Of a stretch of DNA of 64,000 nucleotides, positions 26,136 through 61,774 are shown piece after piece. The DNA is taken from assembly GCA_965206775.1 (NCBI GenBank), contig CBDBKU010000002.1:1999796-2063795 (forward strand), given 5' to 3'. The translations under genes were made by a program, and so were the position numbers. This DNA comes from Bryobacterales bacterium. Lineage in GTDB: Bacteria; Acidobacteriota; Terriglobia; Bryobacterales; UBA6623. The stretch's first letter is position 1. Every line of letters starts with the position of its first letter. The notes beneath the pieces are model-generated. The model searched no databases and was not told the origin of the DNA. It saw nothing but the letters and a program-made list of their open reading frames with translations.

Positions 26136-27131
26136 TTACTCGGGCGATCCCTGCCGGCCCTCGAGGTACCTCGCCACGGCCCCCCTCCTGGCAGTTTCCT
26201 TCCGTGTGTAGCGGATCACCATGCCGGCGGACCTCCAGCCGCCCGCCGCGGCGATCTCGTGCGTGGAGGCGCCGGCGCGGCTGAGCTCGGCGGCCAGGCC
26301 CACGCGCCCGGAATGCCCGGAGAAGCCCTCCCCGAGCCCGGCGGCGCGGGCGGCGGCCGCGACGCGCCTTCCGATTTGCCGGCCCGAGAGCCCGAACACG
26401 GAATCCTCCGGGCCCGCGCCTTCCGGGCGGACCGCCTCGAGAGCGCGCACGGCGTCGCGGGGCAGGTAGCGCACGTCTCCCTCGGCTTCCTGGTCGGTCT
26501 TGGAACGGCGCACCCAGAGCAGCCCGCTGCCGTCCGCGGAGGCCTCCACGCCGCCCCACGCCAGCTCCGCGGCCTCCGAGCGCCGCAGCCCGGCATAGAA
26601 GAGCACCGAGCAGAGCGCGATGTCGGCCAGCCCGCGCGCCCGGGCTTTTCCCTCCGATTCGGTGCGCCCGGTCTGCCGGCCCGTGCGCGCCTGGCAGGCG
26701 GTCGCCCGGATCGCCGCCAGCTCCGCCAGGCCCAGGGCCCGGGCCTGGCGCTGCGGCGCGGCCCTTTCGCGGACCAGCCCGGCCAGGGCTCTTCTGACGA
26801 GCTCGCTGCCGGCGGGATCGTCCAGCCCGGAGGCGCGGTGGGCGGCGCCGATCGCGGCCCGGCGCACCTTGAGGGTCGACGCGGAGGCGGCCCCGGCGAT
26901 CGCGGCCAGGTGCGCCGCGACGGTCTGCGGGGCGGCCGGGGCGGGGGCGTAGCCGTGCCGGGAGCACCAGCCCTCGAAGGCTCGCCAGTGGCCCAGGTAG
27001 GCGCGCCGGGTGTTTTCCGCCAGGGACGCTGAAAGCGCCTTCCGGACGCGCTCCGCGTCGCCGGCGGCCAGGCCGGCGGGGGCGGGGGCATCCAGCGCGT
27101 CCGGCGGGGCAGGATGTCCCATAACGTCCAT
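26136..27131 (-). CDS. Tyrosine site-specific recombinase/integrase (XerC/D-like fold)
   Basis: 331 aa from the ATG at 27131. SAM-like N-domain (NTRRAYLGHWRAFEGWCSRHG). Catalytic region LFYAGLRRSEAAEL...GHSGRVGLAAELSRAG...GGWRSAGMVIRYTR (R..HxxR..Y). It sits in a much more GC-rich block than its flanks (by eye). Confidence 0.85.
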   Translation of the reverse strand: MDVMGHPAPPDALDAPAPAGLAAGDAERVRKALSASLAENTRRAYLGHWRAFEGWCSRHGYAPAPAAPQTVAAHLAAIAGAASASTLKVRRAAIGAAHRASGLDDPAGSELVRRALAGLVRERAAPQRQARALGLAELAAIRATACQARTGRQTGRTESEGKARARGLADIALCSVLFYAGLRRSEAAELAWGGVEASADGSGLLWVRRSKTDQEAEGDVRYLPRDAVRALEAVRPEGAGPEDSVFGLSGRQIGRRVAAAARAAGLGEGFSGHSGRVGLAAELSRAGASTHEIAAAGGWRSAGMVIRYTRKETARRGAVARYLEGRQGSPE

Positions 27132-28596
27132 TGGGTATCGTCCGATCCTGCCGTGGCCACGGTAATCGACGGCACGGTGACCGCTGTGGGGCCGGGGAAC
27201 GCAAGCACCGTTGCGACCTACCAGGGACGAAAGGCCGTGGCGGAGATTTCTGTGCACATATCCGCGAGCGAGACGGGTACGGTGCGTGTGATTTACGCGG
27301 CGCCGTCGGATCGTGAGTTTCGATCCGACTACCGAGATGCTATCCAGCATGCCATTGTGGATCTGCAGTCGTGGTATCGCCGACAACTCGGTGGACTGAC
27401 GTTCTCGCTGTATGACGCCACGCCCGAGCTGTGCCAACTGAGCGAGACCTCGGATTACTACGATCAAGATCCGTGGCACAAGGTACTCGAAGGCGTACAA
27501 CACTGCGCCCCCGTCGAAGACAACACATCCACCTTCGCGTGGGTCATCTACGCCGACCTGGAGGCGGTATGTGGTGCACACGGTCCGTTAGGACGCGGCG
27601 GGCCGGGCCTCACCATGGTCGGTCGGAAGGACCTGGAGGGCCTGATCGGCAACAGGCTCGTTTACTACGATGAGTGTGGCGTCGGTCCGTATGACTTTCC
27701 CGTTACCCGCTGGATCGGCGGTATCGGGCATGAACTTGGCCACGCGTTGAGACTTCCTCACCCACCGGGGTGTGACGAAGGGCTTCCGACATGTGACTTT
27801 GAGGCACTGATGCATATTGGGTACACGTTGTACCCGGACACGTATCTGCGCCCTGACGAGAAGCAAGTGCTTTGGCGGTCCCCGTTCATCGAAAAAAATC
27901 CCTCCCAGCGGCAATTGATGGAGGAAGCCGGGATCGTAGCGGCGATTCGGGGCACCGTGAGCGACCCGGGCGGCGAAGTCGTCGTAGGCATCCGTGTCTC
28001 GGCGGGTTCCGATGATTTTTGGGCGTGGGGCGAGACCGCATCGGACGGAATATTTGAAATCCGCCTGCCTGACGGCTCATCGGGTTCGTCAGTCCTGAGT
28101 GTTCACGCGGGCGGCGTTGCGGACTGCGGGTGGCTCGGATATCACGTTGCGGGCGGGCTCACGACGTTTCGGGAACACGCCACGCGAATCGAGCTCGGCG
28201 AGGTCGATCCAGCAATCATTGAGATCAGCCTTCCGGCCATTTCCGGGGAGCTGTGCCAGGGACAAAGGACGGTCAGCGGAACGGTGCTGGGACCGAGCGG
28301 TGATCCCGTGGGGGTCTTTGTGGGGGCCTTCGACCAATGGAGTTTTTCTGGGGACGACGGTCTGTTCGAACTTCGCCTGCCGGAAGGCTCGGAAGTCTCG
28401 TCTCCCTTATTTGTCGATGTGCCGGAGTGCGGGAATGTCGGATTCTACGGCCCGGGCGGCTTTACGACTCGCTTCGCCGATGCGTGGCAATGGGGAATTG
28501 GTGGCGTTAACGTGGCGGGCATCGTGATCCGGCTTCCTGCCACGCCAGAGGAACTGTGCCGCCGACAGCCTACAATCGCGGGGACAGTCGTCGGCC
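27114..28596 (+). pseudogene. Secreted zinc metalloprotease with Big_2 domain and tandem ~105-aa repeats; 5'-truncated and IS-interrupted (part 1)
   Basis: It starts in the middle of a Big_2 domain (VHWVSSDPAVATVIDGTVTAVGPGNASTVATYQGRKAVAEISV). HExxH site GIGHELGHALRLPHPPGC. Repeats run from 27955. The reading frame is cut by the IS end at 28596/28597. Confidence 0.75.
28587..28596. repeat. Target-site duplication (left copy) of the ISAs1-like element
   Basis: GTCGTCGGCC is repeated exactly at 30701-30710, immediately outside the IS inverted repeats. Confidence 0.8.
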
Positions 28597-30700
28597 CACG
28601 GCTGATTCTTGTTCGAGGGTAGTAACCTTGGTCGCAAAGAGTTAGACAAGGGACTGGCTTTTTTGGCCGGGATCGTGTATTGATGGGGCATGACGATGCC
28701 AGTGTGTGCTGCGGAGGTTCCGGTGCTGAGCGAGGTGGTGGTCCGGCCGACCCGGCCGGAGGAGCGGCTGCGCTGGGACGGGTTGATGGACGCGCACCAC
28801 TATCTGGGATTCAAGCAGTTCGCGGGGCGCGGGCTGCGCTACGTGGCGGAGTGGCGGGGCGAGTGGCTGGCGCTGCTGGGCTGGCAGACGGGGGTGTTCC
28901 AGTGCCGGCCGCGCGACCGCTGGCTGGGCTGGCACAAGGCGGTGCAGTTCCGGCGCTTGCACCTGTGCGGGAATAACACGCGGTTCCTGGTGCTGCCCGC
29001 GGGGCAGGGCGTGAAGAACCTGGCCTCGCGGGTGCTGGGGTTGAACCTGCGGCGGCTGAGCGGGGACTGGGAGGCGAGTTGGGGGCATCCGCTCGAACTC
29101 GCGGAGACGTTCGTGGATCCGCGCAAGTACCGGGGCACGGCGTATCTGGCGTCGAACTGGATCAAGCTGGGGCTGAGCAAGGGCTACGCGCGGTCGAACG
29201 GGAAGTACACCGACAAGCACGGGCAGAAGAAGATGATGCTGGTGTATGAGTTGCGGGCGGGAGCGCGGGAGCGGCTGGCGGATCCGCAGGAGCGGGAGGA
29301 GTGGGATTGCGGGCCGGTGGATGTGCGCTACGGGGCGGAGGATTTGCGGTCGTTGCGGAAGCAGTTGGAGGATGTGGAGGACAGCCGGGGGCGCCGCGGG
29401 AAGCGGCATGCGCTGGGGGTGGTGCTGGCGCTGATGGTGTTGGCGAGGCTGGCGGGCAAGCGCGGCGGGAGGGCGGCGGAAGCGTACTCGAAGACACTGA
29501 AGGAGCACGAGTTACGGGCGCTGGAGTGCCGCTGGGACGAGCGCGAGCGGCGGTGCGTGACGCCTTCGGACACGACGTTCCAGCGAGTCATGGAGCGGAC
29601 GGATCCGGCCTCGCTGGAGCGCGTGATCCAGCGCTGGACGCAGCCGCTGGTGCCGCAGCCGCAGGCGCTGGCGGCGGACGGGAAGCGCATTCGGGGGGCG
29701 AATCGGATGGCGGCGGAGGGGCAGCACTGGGAGACGGTGACGCTGGTGGGCCATGTCAAGGGCCTGCCGGTGGCGAGCCGCAGCTACCGCGAGGAAGGCG
29801 GCGAGCAAGGCGCGCTGCGGGCGTTGCTGGAAGAGGTGGATCTGCGCGGCCGGACGGTGACGATGGACGCGGGGCATGCGGGGCAGGAGATCCAGCGGGC
29901 GATCATCGAGCAGCACGGCGGGGAGGTGCTGGTGCGCATCAAGGGCAACTGCGCGCTGACCTACGAGACGCTGACGGGCCTGAACTGGGAGCGGGGCGCG
30001 GAGCGCAGTTGGCAGGAAGGGCGCTGGCAGCGCTCGCGCAACAAGCGCTGGGAGCGGCGCTCGATCGCTGTGTTCACGCCCCATCCGAAACTGCTGCCGT
30101 ACCCGCATGCCCGGCAGGCGTACCGCATCACGCACGAGACCTGCAAGCGGCTGGGCGGGCCGGTGTCGAGCAGCTACAGCTACGGCATCACCTCGCTGTC
30201 GGAGCAGGCCGCCTCGGCTCAGGACCTGCTGGCGTTGCAGCGGGGTCACTGGCAGGTGGAGAGCGCCAACCACTATCGCCGCGACGTCTCCTTCGGGGAG
30301 GACAGCAGCCGCATCCGCACGGGTCACGGTCCGTCCAACGCCGCGGCGCTGAACAACCTGGCGCTGGCGCTGCTGCTGTCGCAGCGGCCGCAGGACACCG
30401 TGCCGGAGGCGCAAACGTACTACGCCGGCAACCGTGACGAGGCGCTGCAACTGCTGCTGACTCCCGGCTAGCGAGGATTCCGCTCCGCAGCCGCGGAGTC
30501 CGGTCCATCGCGGCCCAGGCGGACGGGCCCTCCACGCCCTCGTTGCGGCTGCCAGCGCCCCACTCGGCGATTCCCGGCCCGTCCTGCGTCCCCAGCACCG
30601 TAACAACACCCGATTTCACTCGGCAGACCGCCCCACTTCCCGTGCTCCAACGCCCTATCTGGGCCATCCCTCCCTCCAAGCCAACAAGGAATCAGCGGTG
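28597..30700 (+). mobile_element. Complete ISAs1-like IS element encoding a DUF4338-transposase fusion
   Basis: Terminal IRs are CACGGCTGATTC-TTGTT (28597..) and, reverse-complemented from 30700, CACCGCTGATTCCTTGTT. A 10-bp direct repeat flanks it. Removing 28597-30710 restores the host reading frame (..IAGTVVGP|DGEVMEG..). Confidence 0.85.
28690..30471 (+). CDS. ISAs1-family DDE transposase with N-terminal DUF4338 (DruA-like) domain
   Basis: The N-terminal ~200 aa carry HHYLGFKQFAGRGLRYVAE, RDRWLGW, NNTRFLVLP, NLASRVLGLNLRRLSGDW and LAETFVDPRKYRGTAYLASNW. The body carries DSRGRRGKRHALGVVLALMVLARLAG ... DAGHAGQE ... GHWQVESANHYRRDVSFGEDSSRIRTGHGPSNAAALNNLALALL. Confidence 0.8.
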   Translation: MTMPVCAAEVPVLSEVVVRPTRPEERLRWDGLMDAHHYLGFKQFAGRGLRYVAEWRGEWLALLGWQTGVFQCRPRDRWLGWHKAVQFRRLHLCGNNTRFLVLPAGQGVKNLASRVLGLNLRRLSGDWEASWGHPLELAETFVDPRKYRGTAYLASNWIKLGLSKGYARSNGKYTDKHGQKKMMLVYELRAGARERLADPQEREEWDCGPVDVRYGAEDLRSLRKQLEDVEDSRGRRGKRHALGVVLALMVLARLAGKRGGRAAEAYSKTLKEHELRALECRWDERERRCVTPSDTTFQRVMERTDPASLERVIQRWTQPLVPQPQALAADGKRIRGANRMAAEGQHWETVTLVGHVKGLPVASRSYREEGGEQGALRALLEEVDLRGRTVTMDAGHAGQEIQRAIIEQHGGEVLVRIKGNCALTYETLTGLNWERGAERSWQEGRWQRSRNKRWERRSIAVFTPHPKLLPYPHARQAYRITHETCKRLGGPVSSSYSYGITSLSEQAASAQDLLALQRGHWQVESANHYRRDVSFGEDSSRIRTGHGPSNAAALNNLALALLLSQRPQDTVPEAQTYYAGNRDEALQLLLTPG

Positions 30701-30710
30701 GTCGTCGGCC
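30701..30710. repeat. Target-site duplication (right copy) of the ISAs1-like element
   Basis: GTCGTCGGCC, identical to 28587-28596. Confidence 0.8.
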
Positions 30711-31009
30711 CGGACGGCGAAGTCATGGAGGGGATATGGGTCGTAGCCTTACCGGTTTGGCGCTGGGGAATGAGCGGGGCGGATGGTACCTTCGAAATCC
30801 GCTTGCTCGAAGGCACGACCGGAATGCCCGTTCTGGGCATCCACGCGGACTGCGGACTGGTGGGATACTACGGCCCGAACGGGTTCACGACGAGCCGAGA
30901 GGATGCGACCGGTATCGAAATCGGGGAGGGTAACGTGACCGGTATCGTGATCAGGATCCCGGCAGAGCCGGACGAACTCTGCGTCAAGCCCGAGTTTGAC
31001 AGTTTCTAG
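30701..31009 (+). pseudogene. Metalloprotease gene, part 2 (third tandem repeat and stop)
   Basis: VVGPDGEVMEGIWVVALPVWRWGMSGADGTFEIRLLEGTTGMPVLGIHADCGLVGYYGPNGFTTSREDATGIEIGEGNVTGIVIRIPAEPDELC is colinear with the two repeats upstream of the IS. Confidence 0.75.
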
Positions 31010-31092
31010 ATACAGAAGCCATATAAGTCGAGACGCATCAACATCTTACGGGTTTTTCTCAAAATCCCGATTGTATCTAGGAACTGGCGGCG

Positions 31093-32868
31093 TCAGTCCA
31101 TTTGAAGAATCGGCGAAGGATCGTCTATCTCCATTTGTCGCAACAACTTACGGGCTTCCTCCGGCGGCTCCGTCACCTGCCAGACGGCTCGTCCGTCGCT
31201 CAACAATTGCGCCAGCTGGATCCGTTTCAGGCGGTTCCGAATGTTCCTCCAGGTGTCCCCGCAGGCCCGCTCCGCCACCCGTTCCAGCAATAACGCCAGC
31301 ACCGCCAGCGACACATGCGCGTGAATCCGGTGCGGTGCCCAGTGATACACCGGCCGCAGCCGCAGCCCGCTCTTCAGCGTCCGCCACGCCTGCTCCACTC
31401 GCTGCAGTTGCTTGTACCCCAGCGCCATGTCCTCCCCGCTCAGGCTGTCATCGTTCCCGTGCACCACGAACTTCCCGTCCCGCCGCTCCGCTGCCCGGAC
31501 CTTCTTGCGGTCGATCGCCAGGCACCCGTCCGCCCTCGTCTTCAGATAGCGTCCGTACCGCCCGCTCGCTTGCAACTCGCATTCCCGCTTGCGGTGTCCC
31601 CTGCCGCCTGCCGTCCCCTCCCCGGACTTCCCGCCCGTCGCATCCGGCGCCTTGGCTTGCTCCGCCTTGGCTTGCTTCGCCCGGGCCCTCTCTTCCGCTT
31701 TGCGCCGCGCCTCCGCCAAGCTCGCCAGCTCCGCCTCCAGCTCCTCCAGCACGCGCTCCCTGTGCCGCTTCTGCCGCTGCGCTTCCTGCGGATTGAAGCA
31801 AACCGCGTACCGCCGCCTCCGCTCCCCCTCCCCCACCGTGACTTCCTTCACCCGCAGGTTCTCCGCGACCTTCCGGTAGCGCCCCGGATGGCTCAGCACG
31901 TCCTCGTACGCCTCCCCTCCCTGCCGTAGCGGCTGGCCCACCAGATAGCGCCCGCCCGCCGCCGCCAGCGCCTTCAGGTTCGCCTCCGACACCATGCCCG
32001 CGTCTCCCACGAACACGAACCGCCTCAGCTGCCAGCCCTCCAGGTCCCGCTTCGCTTGCTGCACCGTCTCCACGTCCACCGTGTTCCCCGGGAACACCCA
32101 GTGCCGCACCGGAAACCCGTCCCGCGTCACCGCCAGCCCGATCACCACCTGCGGTGCGTCGCCGCGACCGTTCTTGGAGTGCCCCCGCTTGCGCAGCGGC
32201 TGGTAGGTCTGTCCCCCGGCCGCGGTCCCCGCGGTGATCGCTTCCTCGTCCTCCTCGTCGATCTCCCAGTGCAGCGAGGTCGTGTCGAAGAACAGGATCT
32301 CGGTGTCGAGTTGCAGCAGCGTGGCCGTGTTCCAGAAGACGGCCTCCTCGATCGAGTCGCGGTGGGCTTCGAGGAAGTCCATGGCGCGGTAGAGGTGCTG
32401 CAGGGAGAGGCTGCGCAAGCCGGGCAGGCGGATGTCCTCGGCCAGCCACTGGCGGAAGCAGTGCAGTTTGGAGGCGGGGGCGCAGGCGCGGTTGGCGACG
32501 AGGGCGAAGAGGGCGCGCTCGACGTCGAACTCGAGGCGGCGCGAGGCGCGGGCCTTGGCGATGGCCTGGGGGATGCCGAGACGCTGCCAGAGAGCGTCGA
32601 GGACAAAGAGGTCGCCGAAGGGCCAGGCGCCGGCGAGACGGCAGCCGGGGTGGTCGGCGGCGACCTGCTGGGGGTCGCAGCGGTCGAGGATGCTGCGGGC
32701 GAGGCGGCGCAAGGAGTCCACGGACTGCTCGTCGTCGGCGCGGCCGACGTTGTGGAGGATGCGGACGCGGGAGCGTTTGCGGACGGGGTCCCAGGAGTTG
32801 TGGGCGATTTGGAAGTGGGAGAGAGAGCTGCCGTCCTTGCGTTTCTGGCGGCTGACTCGGAGGTACAT
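31093..32868 (-). CDS. IS1634-family (IS4-related) DDE transposase
   Basis: MYLRVSRQKRKDGSSLSHFQIAHNSWDPVRKRSRVRILHNVGRADD is an N-terminus typical of IS1634. The C-terminus is YKQLQRVEQAWRTLKSGLRLRPVYHWAPHRIHAHVSLAVLALLLERV. Element ends are not resolved (see findings). Confidence 0.85.
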   Translation of the reverse strand: MYLRVSRQKRKDGSSLSHFQIAHNSWDPVRKRSRVRILHNVGRADDEQSVDSLRRLARSILDRCDPQQVAADHPGCRLAGAWPFGDLFVLDALWQRLGIPQAIAKARASRRLEFDVERALFALVANRACAPASKLHCFRQWLAEDIRLPGLRSLSLQHLYRAMDFLEAHRDSIEEAVFWNTATLLQLDTEILFFDTTSLHWEIDEEDEEAITAGTAAGGQTYQPLRKRGHSKNGRGDAPQVVIGLAVTRDGFPVRHWVFPGNTVDVETVQQAKRDLEGWQLRRFVFVGDAGMVSEANLKALAAAGGRYLVGQPLRQGGEAYEDVLSHPGRYRKVAENLRVKEVTVGEGERRRRYAVCFNPQEAQRQKRHRERVLEELEAELASLAEARRKAEERARAKQAKAEQAKAPDATGGKSGEGTAGGRGHRKRECELQASGRYGRYLKTRADGCLAIDRKKVRAAERRDGKFVVHGNDDSLSGEDMALGYKQLQRVEQAWRTLKSGLRLRPVYHWAPHRIHAHVSLAVLALLLERVAERACGDTWRNIRNRLKRIQLAQLLSDGRAVWQVTEPPEEARKLLRQMEIDDPSPILQMD

Positions 32869-33294
32869 GTGATCAGTATAGCAAGGGAAACGACATGAAA
32901 AAAAGGTGGTAAACAACAATTCGTGTATCTAGAGAAAGGAGCCTTGGCGGGAGTCGGAGTGCAATGGGAATCAGCTAAGTCATTGAAAACAGAGAATCGG
33001 GGCAGACAGTCCGGCCACTATATGTGCCCATAAACTGTCAAAGTCGGGTCAAGCTGTAGCGTCAGGAGATGCGTTCGAACAAGGCCTAGACCCAACAGCC
33101 GTGTCACCAGGGGCCATTTAGGGTAGCGACCAGATTGGTATTGAAATACAACATAAGGGCGGTTCGAGCCTTGTGGTCAGTTCGGAGCGATCTTGCGGGT
33201 CTCGATAAAACGGCCTCTGATTTCGCTCTCCGGACCTTCTGCGAAGTCGGCAACCCATCTCGCTGCCAGGGACTCGTGGGTTCTGGTGCCTTAC

Positions 33295-33310
33295 ATACAG
33301 GAATCTGTAT
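33295..33310. promoter_or_regulatory. Palindrome ATACAGgaatCTGTAT 10 bp upstream of the toxin start; candidate TA operator
   Basis: A perfect 6-bp inverted repeat with a 4-bp spacer directly before the ATG at 33320. The function is inferred only from position. Confidence 0.3.
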
Positions 33311-33319
33311 ACTCTAGGA

Positions 33320-33682
33320 ATGGATGAGGGTGTGCGGCCCGTGCGCTGGGTCGGTTCCGCCCTGCGGGACCTCAAAGAGTTTCCCAGGGCTGTACAGCGT
33401 GATATCGGCCAGGCGCTCTACGCCGCCCAGTGCGGTGAGGCCTACCCTTCGATCAAAGCGCTGAAGGGTTTTCCTGGCGCTTCGGTTCTTGAGATCGTCG
33501 CGCCGTTTAAGACCGATACCTACCGGTCGGTGTACAGCGTCCAATTTGGATCGGCGATCTATGTCTTGTGCGCCTTCAAGAAGAAGGCCAAAGAGGGCCG
33601 GAAGACGCCGAAAAAGGAAAGGGGCCTGATCAAGACCCGCCTGGAGGCTGCGCGCCAGGACTACAACCGGAGGCAGAACTGA
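33320..33682 (+). CDS. RelE/ParE-superfamily toxin, phage Gp49/HigB-like (DUF891-type)
   Basis: VRWVGSALRDLKEFPRAVQRDIGQALYAAQCGEAYPSIKALKGFPGASVLEIV...YRSVYSVQFGSAIYVLCAFKKKAKEGRKTPKKE. Confidence 0.8.
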   Translation: MDEGVRPVRWVGSALRDLKEFPRAVQRDIGQALYAAQCGEAYPSIKALKGFPGASVLEIVAPFKTDTYRSVYSVQFGSAIYVLCAFKKKAKEGRKTPKKERGLIKTRLEAARQDYNRRQN

Positions 33683-34047
33683 TGGCCAACAAGACGAACG
33701 ATACGAAGGTGACGGAGAGTAGCGGCAATGTTTTCGCTGACCTCGGATTTCCAAGTGCTGATCGCGAGCAGTTGAAGGCGAAGCTCATGCTGGAGATCTA
33801 TCAGGCCATCAAGGACCGCGGCCTCACGCAAACCCAAGCCGGAGAGATCCTGGGCATTCAGCAGCCGCATGTCTCGGCGCTGATGAACGGCCGCTCCGGC
33901 AACTATTCTCTCGGTCGGCTGTTCGAGTTTCTGAACGCGCTTGGCCACGACGTGGAGATTACGGTGCGGCCCAAAGCTCCACGGTCGCCGACCGCACAAA
34001 CGAGTGTGTGGTGCAACCGGAGCGGGTCGGTGAAACAGTATGAGTAA
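33682..34047 (+). CDS. XRE-family HTH antitoxin (HigA-like)
   Basis: The ATG overlaps the toxin stop by 1 nt (TGATG). Sequence: NVFADLGFPSADREQLKAKLMLEIYQAIKDRGLTQTQAGEILGIQQPHVSALMNGRSGNYSLGRLFEFLNALGHDVEITV. Confidence 0.8.
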   Translation: MANKTNDTKVTESSGNVFADLGFPSADREQLKAKLMLEIYQAIKDRGLTQTQAGEILGIQQPHVSALMNGRSGNYSLGRLFEFLNALGHDVEITVRPKAPRSPTAQTSVWCNRSGSVKQYE

Positions 34048-34165
34048 GCGGTCCGAATCGTCTCTGACCGTCGGCGGCAAGCTCAAGGCGCGCGCCATAC
34101 ATCGACTCAAGAGCTAAGCGCGAGAGGTTCCAGCAGCTTGCACGCCAGGTCCTCGCCCCCGCGCC

Positions 34166-36598
34166 CTGCCGTTTACACACAATTCGGACTTGACAAATGG
34201 GTTCCTGCTGTGCCACTCCTAGGGCATGTACGAGCAACACCGGATTCCCTCCACGCTTTCGGATTCCGAAACCCTAGCGCGTGTCAAGGCCCTGATGGCG
34301 GCCGCCGGCTCGGCCAGCCGCATGGAAATCAGCCGCCGGGTCTGCGTTCTGCTCGGCTTCCTCGACGCTCGCGGGCGGCCCCAGCTGGCCAGTTGCATGC
34401 GGGCCTTGCGCGCTCTGGACGCCGCCGGCCAGATCCGACTGCCCGCACCCCGGCATAACCACCGCCGCTGCCGCCCGCGCTGTATCGGCCGCCCCGTCCC
34501 GCCCCCCGTCGGCGTGCCCGCACGGGCCGACCAGCTGCGCGGATTGGAACTCGTCGAGGTCATCGACCCGGCCCAGCGCGGGATCTGGAACGAGCTGATG
34601 CGCAGCGAGCACCCGCGTGGCTCCGTCCAGCACGTCGGCGCCCAGCTGCGCTACCTGCTGGTCTCCGAGCACGGCGTGCTGGGAGCCCTCGGCTTCGCCG
34701 CGGCCGCTCTCGCGCTGGCCGCCCGCGACACCTTCATCGGCTGGGACGCCGACCGGCGCTCCCGCCAGCTGCACCGGGTGATCGGACTGAGCCGATTCCT
34801 GGTCCGCCCCTCCGTACGCTGCCAGAACCTCGCCTCCAAGGCCCTCGGCCTGGCCTTGCGCCGCCTGCCCGACGACTGCCAGCTCCGCTACGGCTACCGT
34901 CCGCTGCTCGTGGAAACCTTTGTCGAGAAAGGCCGTTACCAAGGCACCTCGCTGGCGGCCGCCAACTGGCTGCGGGTCGGCCAGACCGCCGGGCGCGGCC
35001 GCTTCGCGGCGCCCGGGGCCGAGGTAGGGGTGAAAACGGTCTGGCTCTACCCGCTGGCGCGCGCCTGGCGGGCGCAGCTGGGCGTGCCCGAGCCGCCCGC
35101 GCCGGAGGCGCTGGGTGCGGCCGAGAACCTGGCGGCGGACGTGTGGGCCGGGCACGAATTCGGCGGCGCCCGGCTGGGCGATGTACGCTTGGGCAAGCGG
35201 CTGGTGCAGATCGTGCAGAAGCAAGCGGAAGCGCCCACGAAATCGTTCCCGGGAGCGGCGCAGAACGACCAGGCGGCGGTGCGGGGCTACTACCGTCTGA
35301 TCGACCATCCGGCGGACTCGGAGGGGACGCCGGAGAACATCCTGGCCCCGCACCGGCAGCGCACGCTGCAGCGCATGCGGGGGCAGTCGGCGCTGCTGTG
35401 CATCCAGGACGGCACGGACCTGAATTTCGCGGAGCACCCGGGCTGCGTGGGGCTGGGCTACAGCGGCAAGAACAAGGGCTCGGCGGGGACGCTGGGGCTG
35501 CACATGCATTCGACGCTGGTGGTGAACGGGGAGGGGGTGCCGCTGGGAGTGCCGCAGATCCAGTACGAGGCGCCGGACGGGAAGGCGGAGAGGGGCAAGC
35601 CGCTGGAGGAGCGCAAGACGATGCGCTGGATCCGGGGGCTGCGCGAGTGCGCGGAGCTGGCCGGGCAGCTGGAAGGGGTGCGGCCGGTGTCGGTGCTGGA
35701 CCGGGAGGCGGACGTGTTCGCGCTGTTCGCGGAGCAGCGGCGGCTGAGGAAGGTGGACCTGCTGGTGCGGGCCAAGCACAACCGTTCGCTGGGCGCGGAC
35801 GGGCCGAAGCTGTTCGACTGGGTGCGGGCCGAGCCGGCGCAGGGCCGGTTGCAGATCCATGTGGCGCGGCTGTCGGCGAGGCGGGCGAGCCGGGGGCAGA
35901 AGGGCAGCGAGGCGCGGGAGGAGCGGGAGGCGCAGGTGGAACTGCGCTGGCGGGAGGTCGAACTGGCGGACCCGGAGCGGCAGGAGGCAGGGCTGAAGCT
36001 GCGCCTGGTGCACGTGCGGGAGGAGACGCAGCCAGACGGAGCGGAGCGGCTGGAATGGTTCCTGCTGACGACGCTGGCAGTGCAGACGCAGCAGGAGGCG
36101 GAGCGGGTGCTGGAGTGGTACAAGCTGCGGTGGCGCATCGAGGACTGGCACCGGGTGCTGAAGTCGGGCTGCAAGGTGGAGTACCTGGGGCACCGGCAGG
36201 GGGAGCGGATCGAGCGGGCGGTGACGATCAACGCGGTGATCGCCTGGCGGCTGACGCTGATGACCCTGCTGGGACGGGACACCCCGGAACTGCCGGCGGA
36301 CACGCTGTTCACGGAGATCGAGCTGGCGGCGCTGGAGGATTTCGCGCAAGACCGGCGGCAGCTGCCGCCGGATAATCTGGGGCGAGCGGTGCTAACGCTG
36401 GCGATGCTGGGCGGGTATCTGAATTACAAGCGCAAAAAGTACGCAGTGCCGGGACACAAGGTGATGTGGGAGGGATACACGAGGCTGGCCACGATCACCC
36501 AGGTGGTGGAACGGACCCGTCGGCTAAACGAGGGTAGCAAGCTCTATCAGAAGATGCGTCAAAAGATGCGTCGTGAGTGACTTGTGTGTAAACGGCAG
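34166..36598 (+). mobile_element. Complete Tn5/IS50-like (IS4 family) IS element encoding a DUF4338-transposase fusion
   Basis: Perfect 17-bp terminal IR CTGCCGTTTACACACAA (34166-34182, reverse complement at 36582-36598). The right end CTGCCGTTTACACACAAGT matches the Tn5 outside end CTGACTCTTATACACAAGT at 15/19 (hand count). The 9-bp flanks differ (ccccgcgcc vs gctgcggct), so no target duplication is visible. Confidence 0.8.
34226..36580 (+). CDS. Tn5-like IS4-family DDE transposase with ~290-aa N-terminal DUF4338 (DruA-like) extension
   Basis: N-terminus: SRRVCVLLGFLDARGRPQLASCMRALRALDAAGQIRLP, LRYLLVSEHGVLGALGF, RDTFIGW, LSRFLVRP, NLASKALGLALRRLPDDC, LVETFVEKGRYQGTSLAAANW. Body: WAGHEFGGARLGDVRLGKRLVQIV (Tn5 DNA-binding N-domain), LDREADVFALF, YKLRWRIEDWHRVLKSGCKVE. 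Confidence 0.8.
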   Translation: MYEQHRIPSTLSDSETLARVKALMAAAGSASRMEISRRVCVLLGFLDARGRPQLASCMRALRALDAAGQIRLPAPRHNHRRCRPRCIGRPVPPPVGVPARADQLRGLELVEVIDPAQRGIWNELMRSEHPRGSVQHVGAQLRYLLVSEHGVLGALGFAAAALALAARDTFIGWDADRRSRQLHRVIGLSRFLVRPSVRCQNLASKALGLALRRLPDDCQLRYGYRPLLVETFVEKGRYQGTSLAAANWLRVGQTAGRGRFAAPGAEVGVKTVWLYPLARAWRAQLGVPEPPAPEALGAAENLAADVWAGHEFGGARLGDVRLGKRLVQIVQKQAEAPTKSFPGAAQNDQAAVRGYYRLIDHPADSEGTPENILAPHRQRTLQRMRGQSALLCIQDGTDLNFAEHPGCVGLGYSGKNKGSAGTLGLHMHSTLVVNGEGVPLGVPQIQYEAPDGKAERGKPLEERKTMRWIRGLRECAELAGQLEGVRPVSVLDREADVFALFAEQRRLRKVDLLVRAKHNRSLGADGPKLFDWVRAEPAQGRLQIHVARLSARRASRGQKGSEAREEREAQVELRWREVELADPERQEAGLKLRLVHVREETQPDGAERLEWFLLTTLAVQTQQEAERVLEWYKLRWRIEDWHRVLKSGCKVEYLGHRQGERIERAVTINAVIAWRLTLMTLLGRDTPELPADTLFTEIELAALEDFAQDRRQLPPDNLGRAVLTLAMLGGYLNYKRKKYAVPGHKVMWEGYTRLATITQVVERTRRLNEGSKLYQKMRQKMRRE

Positions 36599-36723
36599 GC
36601 TGCGGCTCCTAGGAGTCCGGGACATCCAGACCCAGTCCCCACTTCACAGGCTCGGCTAATTCCAGCGGCCGCCGGGAGCGACGGCGGATGCCAGGATCCC
36701 GGCACCCTTAAGTTCGCTATCCG

Positions 36724-61633: not shown

Positions 61634-61774
61634 GCCGCCCCAAACTCGGCGGCGCTGAACAACCTGGTGCTGCCGCTAATCCTGCCGCAGAAGCTCGGCA
61701 CGGTGCAAGACGCGCAGATCCTCTACGTCGCGAACACTGGCAAGGCGCTGCAGTTCCTGCTCGCGCGGGCCTAG
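61634..61774 (+). pseudogene. ISAs1-family transposase C-terminal fragment
   Basis: AAPNSAALNNLVLPLILPQKLGTVQDAQILYVANTGKALQFLLARA parallels the end of the 28690..30471 transposase (GPSNAAALNNLALALLLSQRPQDTVPEAQTYYAGNRDEALQLLLTPG). Confidence 0.55.

Follow-up and report, generated by a model that had tools for sequence, protein, structure and literature searches.

Two insertion sequences (IS) of unrelated families were analyzed in a 64,000-nucleotide (nt) stretch of a Bryobacterales bacterium genome (assembly GCA_965206775.1, contig CBDBKU010000002.1), the whole of which is referred to as the window. One is an ISAs1-type element and the other an IS4/Tn5-type element, and each carries a single long open reading frame (ORF1 and ORF2, respectively) in which a module of the DUF4338 family (Pfam DruA, PF14236) stands before a DDE transposase. 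Both reading frames exist exactly as given in the initial annotation, which had been made from the sequence alone, and its placement of a DUF4338 module N-terminal to both transposases was confirmed by Pfam. Against a PF14236 gathering threshold of 27 bits, ORF1 matched over amino acids (aa) 22-175 (E 1.1e-17, 64.6 bits) and ORF2 over aa 106-261 (E 1.6e-30, 106.7 bits). The homology of the two extensions, first proposed from an alignment by eye, was borne out at 37% identity over 146 aa (E 9e-23). The module is placed upstream of the transposase's own DNA-binding domain in both ORFs, and no further copy of it was found in the 64-kb window by tblastn. Coordinates of the individual features are provided in Table 1.

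Table 1. Features of the two module-bearing insertion sequences, in window coordinates (AF2, AlphaFold2; pLDDT, predicted local distance difference test; HTH, helix-turn-helix)
Feature	Position	Strand	Basis
Left 10-bp target-site duplication of the ISAs1-type element, GTCGTCGGCC	28587..28596	.	Direct sequence reading
ISAs1-family insertion sequence, 2104 bp, carrying a module-transposase fusion	28597..30700	+	Homology limits with L012, inverted repeats
Terminal inverted repeats of the ISAs1-type element, CACGGCTGATTCTTGTT and AACAAGGAATCAGCGGTG	28597-28613 and 30683-30700
ORF1, 593 aa: Mom-like predicted GNAT module and ISAs1 transposase	28690..30471	+	ORF list, Pfam, NCBIfam
DUF4338/DruA-family module of ORF1 (predicted GNAT fold), aa 22-175	28753..29214	+	Pfam, AF2, fold search
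DDE_Tnp_1_assoc DNA-binding region of ORF1, aa 225-317	29362..29640	+	PF13808, E 8.7e-16
DDE catalytic domain of ORF1, aa 374-560	29809..30369	+	PF01609 DDE_Tnp_1, E 5.5e-15
Right 10-bp target-site duplication of the ISAs1-type element, GTCGTCGGCC	30701..30710	.	Direct sequence reading
IS4/Tn5-type insertion sequence, 2433 bp, carrying a module-transposase fusion	34166..36598	+	Inverted repeats, sister copies
Terminal inverted repeats of the Tn5-type element, perfect over 17 nt, CTGCCGTTTACACACAA	34166-34182 and 36582-36598
ORF2, 784 aa: helical domain, Mom-like predicted GNAT module and complete Tn5-type transposase	34226..36580	+
N-terminal helical domain of ORF2 (predicted), aa 1-66	34226..34423	+	AF2 helices 4-12, 14-27, 32-43 and 54-66, pLDDT ~88-93
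DUF4338/DruA-family module of ORF2 (predicted GNAT fold), aa 106-284	34541..35077	+	Pfam aa 106-261; AF2 alpha/beta domain aa 108-284
Tn5-type transposase DNA-binding domain (Tnp_DNA_bind), aa 307-362	35144..35311	+	PF14706, E 5.7e-14
DDE core and putative Tn5-type dimerisation region, aa 363-765	35312..36520	+	NCBIfam, Pfam

The transposase part of ORF1 was assigned using the NCBIfam ISAs1 model NF033564 (144 bits, cut-off 70), the full profile of which (positions 1-314) aligned with aa 245-562. The limits of the element were determined by comparison with L012, a second copy located on a different contig; at 95% identity, this copy has the same ends, and its homology begins and ends exactly at 28597 and 30700. 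Both junctions of that copy carry the 10-bp duplication GCTGCTGAGG, unlike the GTCGTCGGCC of the window, which indicates two independent insertions of the ISAs1-type element. In the window, the element disrupts a repeat-domain gene (27114..28596 and 30701..31009). This gene consists of repeated ~100-aa modules with weak CarboxypepD_reg and Big_2 matches, and these repeats explain the direct-repeat families D4-D6 detected in the window. A short remnant at 61643-61762 is 54% identical to ORF1 aa 550-590, corresponding to the C-terminus of the ISAs1-type transposase.

ORF2 matched the NCBIfam IS4_3 model NF033590 at 305 bits (cut-off 160) over aa 354-759 and PF14706 at 52 bits (cut-off 24), and a YREK-type motif (YKLRWRIEDWHRVLK) is visible in its translation. 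Dimer_Tnp_Tn5 (PF02281) was matched at 22.9 bits, below the cut-off of 26.7; among 62 sampled relatives, about 31 of which are of the Tn5 type, this family was matched by 28 proteins at E<=1 (best 1.6e-18). A profile of the ORF2 family aligned with residues 9-107 of the solved Tn5 transposase, and since the alignment starts at residue 9, a whole Tn5-type protein follows ~300 extra residues, complete with the DNA-binding domain that the initial annotation had attributed to it. The helical domain at the N-terminus of ORF2 may, judging by its AF2 model, possibly be a winged helix; its relatives gave only faint PaaX/AsnC-type HTH matches.

In the window copy of the Tn5-type element the flanking 8-mers differ (CCCGCGCC, 34158-34165, vs GCTGCGGC, 36599-36606), with no matching duplication, and these flanks probably arose by recombination between copies. 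Species-representative genomes were scanned for the Tn5-type end sequence, which was located in 77 stretches, many of them from Bryobacterales (Acidobacteriota) metagenome-assembled genomes (MAGs). One Bryobacterales MAG contains seven 2421-bp copies that are mutually 99.3-100% identical, and six of the seven hold an intact 780-aa fused ORF that is 87-88% identical to ORF2. These copies and one of 2356 bp make up eight sister copies (L073, L083, L102, L106, L122, L129, L138, and L140) with the same CTG boundary, each bounded by its own perfect 8-bp duplication (including CCTGCGGG, GGCGCGGC, CCCGCGCC, GTCGCCGG, and CCCGCACC). Target preference is strong, for G+C-only, roughly palindromic 8-mers of the form SSCGCGSS. 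A 36-nt 'extended' inverted repeat was considered for this element and rejected, as the eight sister copies indicate that the similarity outside the CTG is the palindromic target preference. Direct repeat D16 (30482-30518 and 36599-36635, 70%), internal to the ISAs1-type element and external to the Tn5-type one, was taken as chance in G+C-rich DNA. Both families have moved recently and both elements are structurally complete, with the intact inverted repeats that the initial annotation described.

The same MAG also contains a divergent full-length ISAs1-type fusion (L147 2965-4776, 38% identical to ORF1). Module-bearing fragments adjoin its Tn5-type copies (L112, L114, L117, L129, and L148), from which it appears that these elements form nests. 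Outside the insertion sequences, similarity between window DNA and this MAG is weak (82%). Taken together with the PSD/PSCyt, sulfatase, and PQQ genes of the window, it points to a related acidobacterium as the source.

Searches with the full-length proteins were used to determine how widespread each architecture is, full-length fusions surfacing once the whole protein serves as the query. With ORF1, at least 100 clusters of the ISAs1 fusion were recovered (~590-610 aa, PF14236 with PF13808 and PF01609, 51-94% identity), and these relatives are often multi-copy within a single genome. ORF2 was searched against 1.84 billion representatives; among the 150 best, 68 are fused proteins of 700-850 aa, with alignments at 29-64% identity that run over the entire length. 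Each of the two fusions thus forms a large and old clade and is not an accident. In line with the portable module suggested in the initial annotation, the module recurs in mobile elements well beyond the window, in these two families and in the IS66 family described below. Shorter matches (260-540 aa and 200-376 aa) raised the candidate of a two-ORF or frameshifted organisation, which was rejected because tblastn revealed decayed copies with frameshifts and deletions. Exact ORF1 and ORF2 sequences had no database record.

Apparent module-less sequences are scattered singly within the fused clade in a neighbour-joining tree. One of these, P0445 (451 aa), belongs to a genuine 1.5-kb Tn5-like IS (L014 2401-3892) that sits inside an IS66 transposase gene and leaves no space for a module, and its transposase nests in the fused clade, which suggests a secondary loss. 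Since this element lacks the module and nevertheless transposed, the module is not needed for the DDE chemistry or for transposition.

A third arrangement is linked to IS66 (L003-L007 and L071, 70% nucleotide identity), in which a DDE transposase gene is followed by a stand-alone module gene of 284-285 aa whose start overlaps the transposase stop codon (L003 38-2600; L071 2-1070). Homology among these loci stops ~25 nt past the module gene, at an IS66-like end (...CTTAC or ...TTTAC). An IS66-family element carrying the module as a separate, coupled ORF is thus partly verified, its left ends lying off the contigs. A 498-aa ORF that follows the module gene is outside the element and had no Pfam, PADLOC, or PDB match. 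The protein P0041 (PF03050 and PF14236) was considered as an IS66 fusion and rejected as a chimeric ORF, because it reads through the left end of a Tn5-type IS inserted in an IS66 transposase gene.

In a plasmid collection, the module was present in two records only, both from Thiodictyon. On plasmid pTs485 (L009 3965-8737) a module-Tn5 fusion has been split by an IS91/integrase insertion and is annotated as a separate 'DUF4338 domain-containing protein' and 'IS4 family transposase', so the annotation hides the fusion architecture. Database labels of the relatives include 'ISAs1 family transposase', 'DUF4338 domain-containing protein', and 'predicted transposase YbfD/YdcC'.

The module was modelled with AF2 as ORF1 aa 1-215 (pLDDT 86, predicted template modelling score 0.84) and ORF2 aa 1-306 (pLDDT 82); the ORF1 module is without the N-terminal helical domain. 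Models were compared to PDB chains by using Foldseek. For ORF1, the best 50 of 272 matches at E<1e-3 were all GNATs, and the top match among 350,542 chains was phage Mu Mom (8bv8_B, E 1.5e-7, query TM-score (TMq) 0.59). For ORF2, all 27 matches at E<1e-3 were GNATs, and Mom had the highest TMq (0.40). As modelled, therefore, the module has a GNAT acyltransferase fold, and DUF4338 has been assigned as a GNAT in one line of an earlier study (PMC10853773). The statement in the initial annotation that the domain has no known biochemistry is still true experimentally, and is to be amended by that assignment and by the Mom-like relation described here.

Mom is an enzyme that uses Gly-tRNA to glycylate adenine at its N6 position in double-stranded DNA (PMC13219725). 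All 62 sampled relatives matched PF14236; weak, colinear matches to the Pfam Mom family (PF25680) were obtained in 16 of the 62 (best E 3.8e-5), and none of them matched generic GNAT/acetyltransferase Pfam families. A module profile was aligned with a Mom profile of 13 sequences (Mu Mom and 12 phage homologues) using hhalign, with a probability of 96.5% and E 9.9e-10 over 133 columns. Three subsets of the module sequences each aligned with the Mom profile at E ~1e-8, while controls with reversed or column-shuffled Mom remained at E 0.09-0.83. When a single sequence was used in place of the Mom profile, hhalign matched Mu Mom only weakly (E 0.0024), and PDB sequence searches with module profiles returned nothing for the module. 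Among BFVD viral structures, Mom-type phage proteins were found at E 1e-7 to 1e-6 and generic GNATs at ~1e-3. Four independent results place Mom as the closest characterised relative of the module, on the same branch of the GNAT superfamily. Both also depart from the canonical acyl-CoA pyrophosphate loop (Q/R-x-x-G-x-G/A). This loop is absent from the module, which has R-C-Q-N-L-A-S in ORF2 and V-K-N-L-A-S in ORF1 (N-L-A-S being nearly invariant), and Mom has R-N-S-E-S at the same place.

Several observations were made on the phage proteins in these comparisons. In Microbacterium phage Dropshot (L064 395-1128) a tRNA-Gly(ccc) gene directly follows a Mom-like acetyltransferase gene, which fits the Gly-tRNA-dependent chemistry of Mom. 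A preprint describes DruA-like folds in Synechococcus phages; a Mom-like protein of a Synechococcus phage is among the Mom homologues, which fits the link to Mom. In BFVD, the same GNAT-type fold occurs within larger phage proteins annotated as homing-endonuclease or restriction-endonuclease-like (for example, A0A7T3KDC2, I7KLM9, A0A6J7WV48, and A0A8S5L6I5), which hints that this fold has repeatedly been joined to DNA-cutting enzymes.

Residue conservation was determined in 182 pooled module sequences. Mom residues R111, S124, and R151 are essential and H58, Y59, D149, and Y159 are important (PMC13219725); R111 is kept in Mom homologues and not across GNATs (PMC7261163). The positions of Mom H58/R111/N121/S124 correspond to H129/R190/N201/S204 in ORF2 and H37/R98/N110/S113 in ORF1, and those of Mom D149/G156/Y159/N163 to E234/G240/L243/N247 and D143/G149/Y152/N156. 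The 182 sequences retain the counterparts of Mom W48, H58, R111, N121, S124, D149 (as Asp or Glu), G156, and Y159 (as Tyr or Phe) at frequencies of 73-99%; the R111 counterpart was found in 176, the S124 counterpart in 169, and Asp or Glu at the D149 position in 154. At least 85% of the sequences in each fusion family share H129, R167, W173, R190, D217, E230, and K270 (ORF2 numbering). Those polar residues are also invariant in the seven IS66-linked sequences, with the exception of K270, which is there the majority residue.

Mean pairwise identity was calculated separately for each part of the fusion proteins. In the ISAs1 type (n=110) it was 0.74 for the module, 0.58 for the HTH/DNA-binding region, and 0.59 for the DDE core; the corresponding values in the Tn5 type (n=65) were 0.386, 0.314, and 0.333. 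By this measure the module has evolved more slowly than any other part of either fusion protein, and being more constrained than the DDE core it is not decaying baggage.

The best reading of these data, held tentatively and with somewhat less than even confidence, is that the module is a transposase-tethered acyl- or aminoacyltransferase that acts on a nucleic-acid base. It would be a working transferase and, being fused to the transposase, would be delivered to the DNA which the transposase binds. There a base would receive an acyl or aminoacyl group, with acyl-CoA or a charged tRNA as the donor. Speculatively, the element might in this way write its own mark on DNA, at its own site or close by, and so control when its ends are usable, in analogy to IS10 and IS50, where Dam methylation at the ends or promoter gates transposition. 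Equally speculative would be protection of the DNA against nucleases of the host, in the way that Mom protects Mu.

A number of observations weigh against this reading. The relation to Mom is remote (~16% identity), and even the best PF25680 members fall below the gathering threshold of 27.1 bits (listed examples 12.7-18.8). At the position aligned with the essential Mom R151 the module is variable, and the HTH-like insertion that is essential in Mom (residues 175-209) is absent, the alignment stopping at Mom residue 173. Tyr occupies the Y159 position in all ISAs1-type and IS66-linked modules, but Leu is found there in ORF2 (residue 243, window 34952-34954) and in 11 of 65 Tn5-type relatives; this substitution may correspond to altered or reduced activity in that Tn5-type subclade. 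Because S124 and Y159 are also general GNAT cofactor contacts, their conservation indicates a cofactor site and does not single out DNA as the substrate. A protein or small-molecule acceptor is equally compatible with the fold, and the sequence names no target.

A rival reading is an acyl-CoA-dependent protein acetyltransferase. Its acceptor would be either the transposase or a nucleoid or replication protein of the host, and its action would tune transposition to metabolic state. RimI, RimJ, and Naa60 are among the fold matches, the module is strongly conserved, and two of its conserved residues, a Ser that begins helix 3 and a Tyr that follows strand 5, are general CoA contacts. Such an enzyme seems unlikely in view of the Pfam results, in which Mom was matched by 16 of 62 members and no generic acetyltransferase by any, of the N-L-A-S that stands in place of the canonical CoA loop and is arranged like R-N-S-E-S of Mom, and of the retained Mom-specific Arg.

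It is also improbable that the module has given up catalysis and is now used for binding or assembly, with DNA ends, target DNA, a tRNA, or a host factor as its partner. A DNA-binding element is always adjacent to the module: in the ISAs1 type this is the HTH of the transposase, and Tn5-type and IS66-linked modules have a helical domain of their own. The marked SSCGCGSS preference of the Tn5-type element and the missing Tyr159 counterpart in ORF2 would also be accommodated. However, its best-kept residues are the counterparts of the Mom catalytic set and not surface patches, while inactive GNAT domains usually lose such residues, and the module-less relative that still transposes argues that the module is not obligatory for end binding. 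Target recognition and end binding had been the roles suggested in the initial annotation; nothing was found in their support, and the conserved residues point to catalysis.

A captured function in phage or plasmid conflict (defence or counter-defence), DruA-like or akin to the anti-restriction of Mom and without a role in transposition, was judged distinctly unlikely. The family shares its name with the DruA component of the Druantia type I system, DUF4338 also occurs as a variable N-terminal domain fused to DndF (PMC10853773), Mom is an anti-restriction enzyme (PMC13219725), and the IS66-linked module is a separate ORF, so that physical fusion is not required. Cargo of this kind would be expected as a separate ORF, though, whereas the module lies in frame before a DNA-binding domain in two families and through the whole depth of their clades.

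The Druantia context is also missing. PADLOC DruA models, which derive from genuine systems, did not match ORF1 and matched ORF2 over 48 residues only (E 4.4e-4, 17.5 bits); the IS module spans positions ~49-232 of the 297 in the DruA profile. No druB-druE neighbours, including the ~2000-aa DruE helicase, were found in the 64-kb window, where the largest ORF is an astacin-type protein of 1123 aa. With PADLOC models barely matching and no Druantia genes present, the IS module represents a remote offshoot of the family that lies outside any Druantia system. The initial label 'DruA-like' thus holds insofar as the PF14236 threshold is passed and fails insofar as the module is distant from genuine Druantia DruA, and because of the PADLOC mismatch 'DUF4338-family' is the safer term.

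An artefactual origin of the long ORFs, whether by chance read-through, as a frameshifted pseudogene, or through an assembly error that fused a DUF4338 gene with a transposase gene, can be dismissed, for despite the many truncated or split database relatives and the chimeric P0041 there are hundreds of independent full-length fusions of constant length and six intact equal-length ORFs in one genome, and the short relatives are decayed fusion copies by tblastn across frames.

The transposase-tethered transferase can be carried further, to a proposal that we regard as doubtful at present. DUF4338 would then be a second, cellular branch of Mom-type writers of acyl or aminoacyl groups on DNA bases, recruited by ISAs1, IS4/Tn5, and IS66 elements. 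A transposase that marks the DNA it binds would constitute a transposon-encoded epigenetic system, serving self-regulation, immunity, or nuclease protection. By extension, DruA might be the DNA-marking part of Druantia type I, as a methyltransferase is in type II.

Between the two module-bearing elements lies an IS1634-family element (30989-33048) that abuts the 3' remnant of the gene interrupted by the ISAs1-type insertion; its transposase (31093..32919, -) scored 404 bits (cut-off 100), and its inverted repeats are imperfect over 26 nt (30989-31014 and 33023-33048). A toxin-antitoxin-like pair at 33320-34047, Gp49 (PF05973, E 1.7e-15) and HTH_37/XRE (E 3.9e-24), sits between the IS1634 and Tn5-type elements and outside both. 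A tyrosine recombinase ORF (26136..27581, -) is located just upstream of the split repeat-domain gene. Large ORFs of the window encode PQQ, PSD/PSCyt, sulfatase, TPR, astacin, and lyase proteins. Scans of the window for promoters and terminators gave nothing above background, and no tRNA genes were found in it.

In the literature search, which spanned 8 million papers and did not cover ISfinder, DUF4338 was mentioned by only four, and no report was found that links DruA to transposases or to Mom, or that describes ISAs1 or Tn5-type transposases with a Mom-like or GNAT domain. The view in the initial annotation that this architecture lacks a published functional description was therefore sustained over that range of sources. 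New here are the module as the most conserved part of the fusion proteins, Mom as its closest characterised relative, and an architecture that is abundant but undescribed.

Extra DNA-binding or regulatory domains are known in transposases; a conserved enzymatic transferase domain is, to our knowledge, absent from current descriptions of insertion sequences. The presence of such a domain in two unrelated IS families, where it has changed less than the DDE core, and its coupling to a third suggest that these elements act on DNA, RNA, or proteins beyond cut-and-paste. If the module is active, these transposons may chemically modify DNA besides moving. The link to Mom also provides a testable activity hypothesis for DruA/DUF4338, a named component of a widespread anti-phage system. 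Defence-annotation pipelines that trust the Pfam name will label these abundant transposase domains 'DruA' and thereby inflate counts of Druantia-related genes in environmental genomes.

Each part of the system can be compared with a known counterpart. ORF1 resembles the ISAs1 family in its NCBIfam equivalog match, in its DDE_Tnp_1_assoc and DDE_Tnp_1 domains, and in the short inverted repeats and 10-bp duplication of its element. Family members are usually ~300-380 aa in elements of 1.2-1.5 kb, whereas ORF1 has ~220 extra N-terminal residues and reaches 593 aa in a 2.1-kb element. ORF2 shares with Tn5/IS50 the Tnp_DNA_bind domain, a DDE core with a YREK-type motif, and ends beginning with CTG, which match 15 of 19 positions of the Tn5 outside end (CTGACTCTTATACACAAGT); a dimerisation region is putatively shared as well. 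It differs in its ~300 extra N-terminal residues, in duplications of 8 bp instead of 9 bp, and in the strong SSCGCGSS preference. The module resembles DruA of Druantia type I in that both ORFs exceed the Pfam PF14236 threshold, but models of genuine DruA barely match and druB-E neighbours are lacking. The likeness to phage Mu Mom (PF25680; 8bv8) extends to the predicted GNAT fold, to an N-x-x-S in place of the canonical CoA loop, and to being encoded by a DDE-transposing mobile element; Mom, however, is a free-standing late phage protein, while the module forms part of a transposase or is encoded in coupling with one. The likeness to Dam control of IS10/IS50 is conceptual only, as base modification that gates transposition, and the enzyme in that case is the host's, whereas here the element would carry its own.

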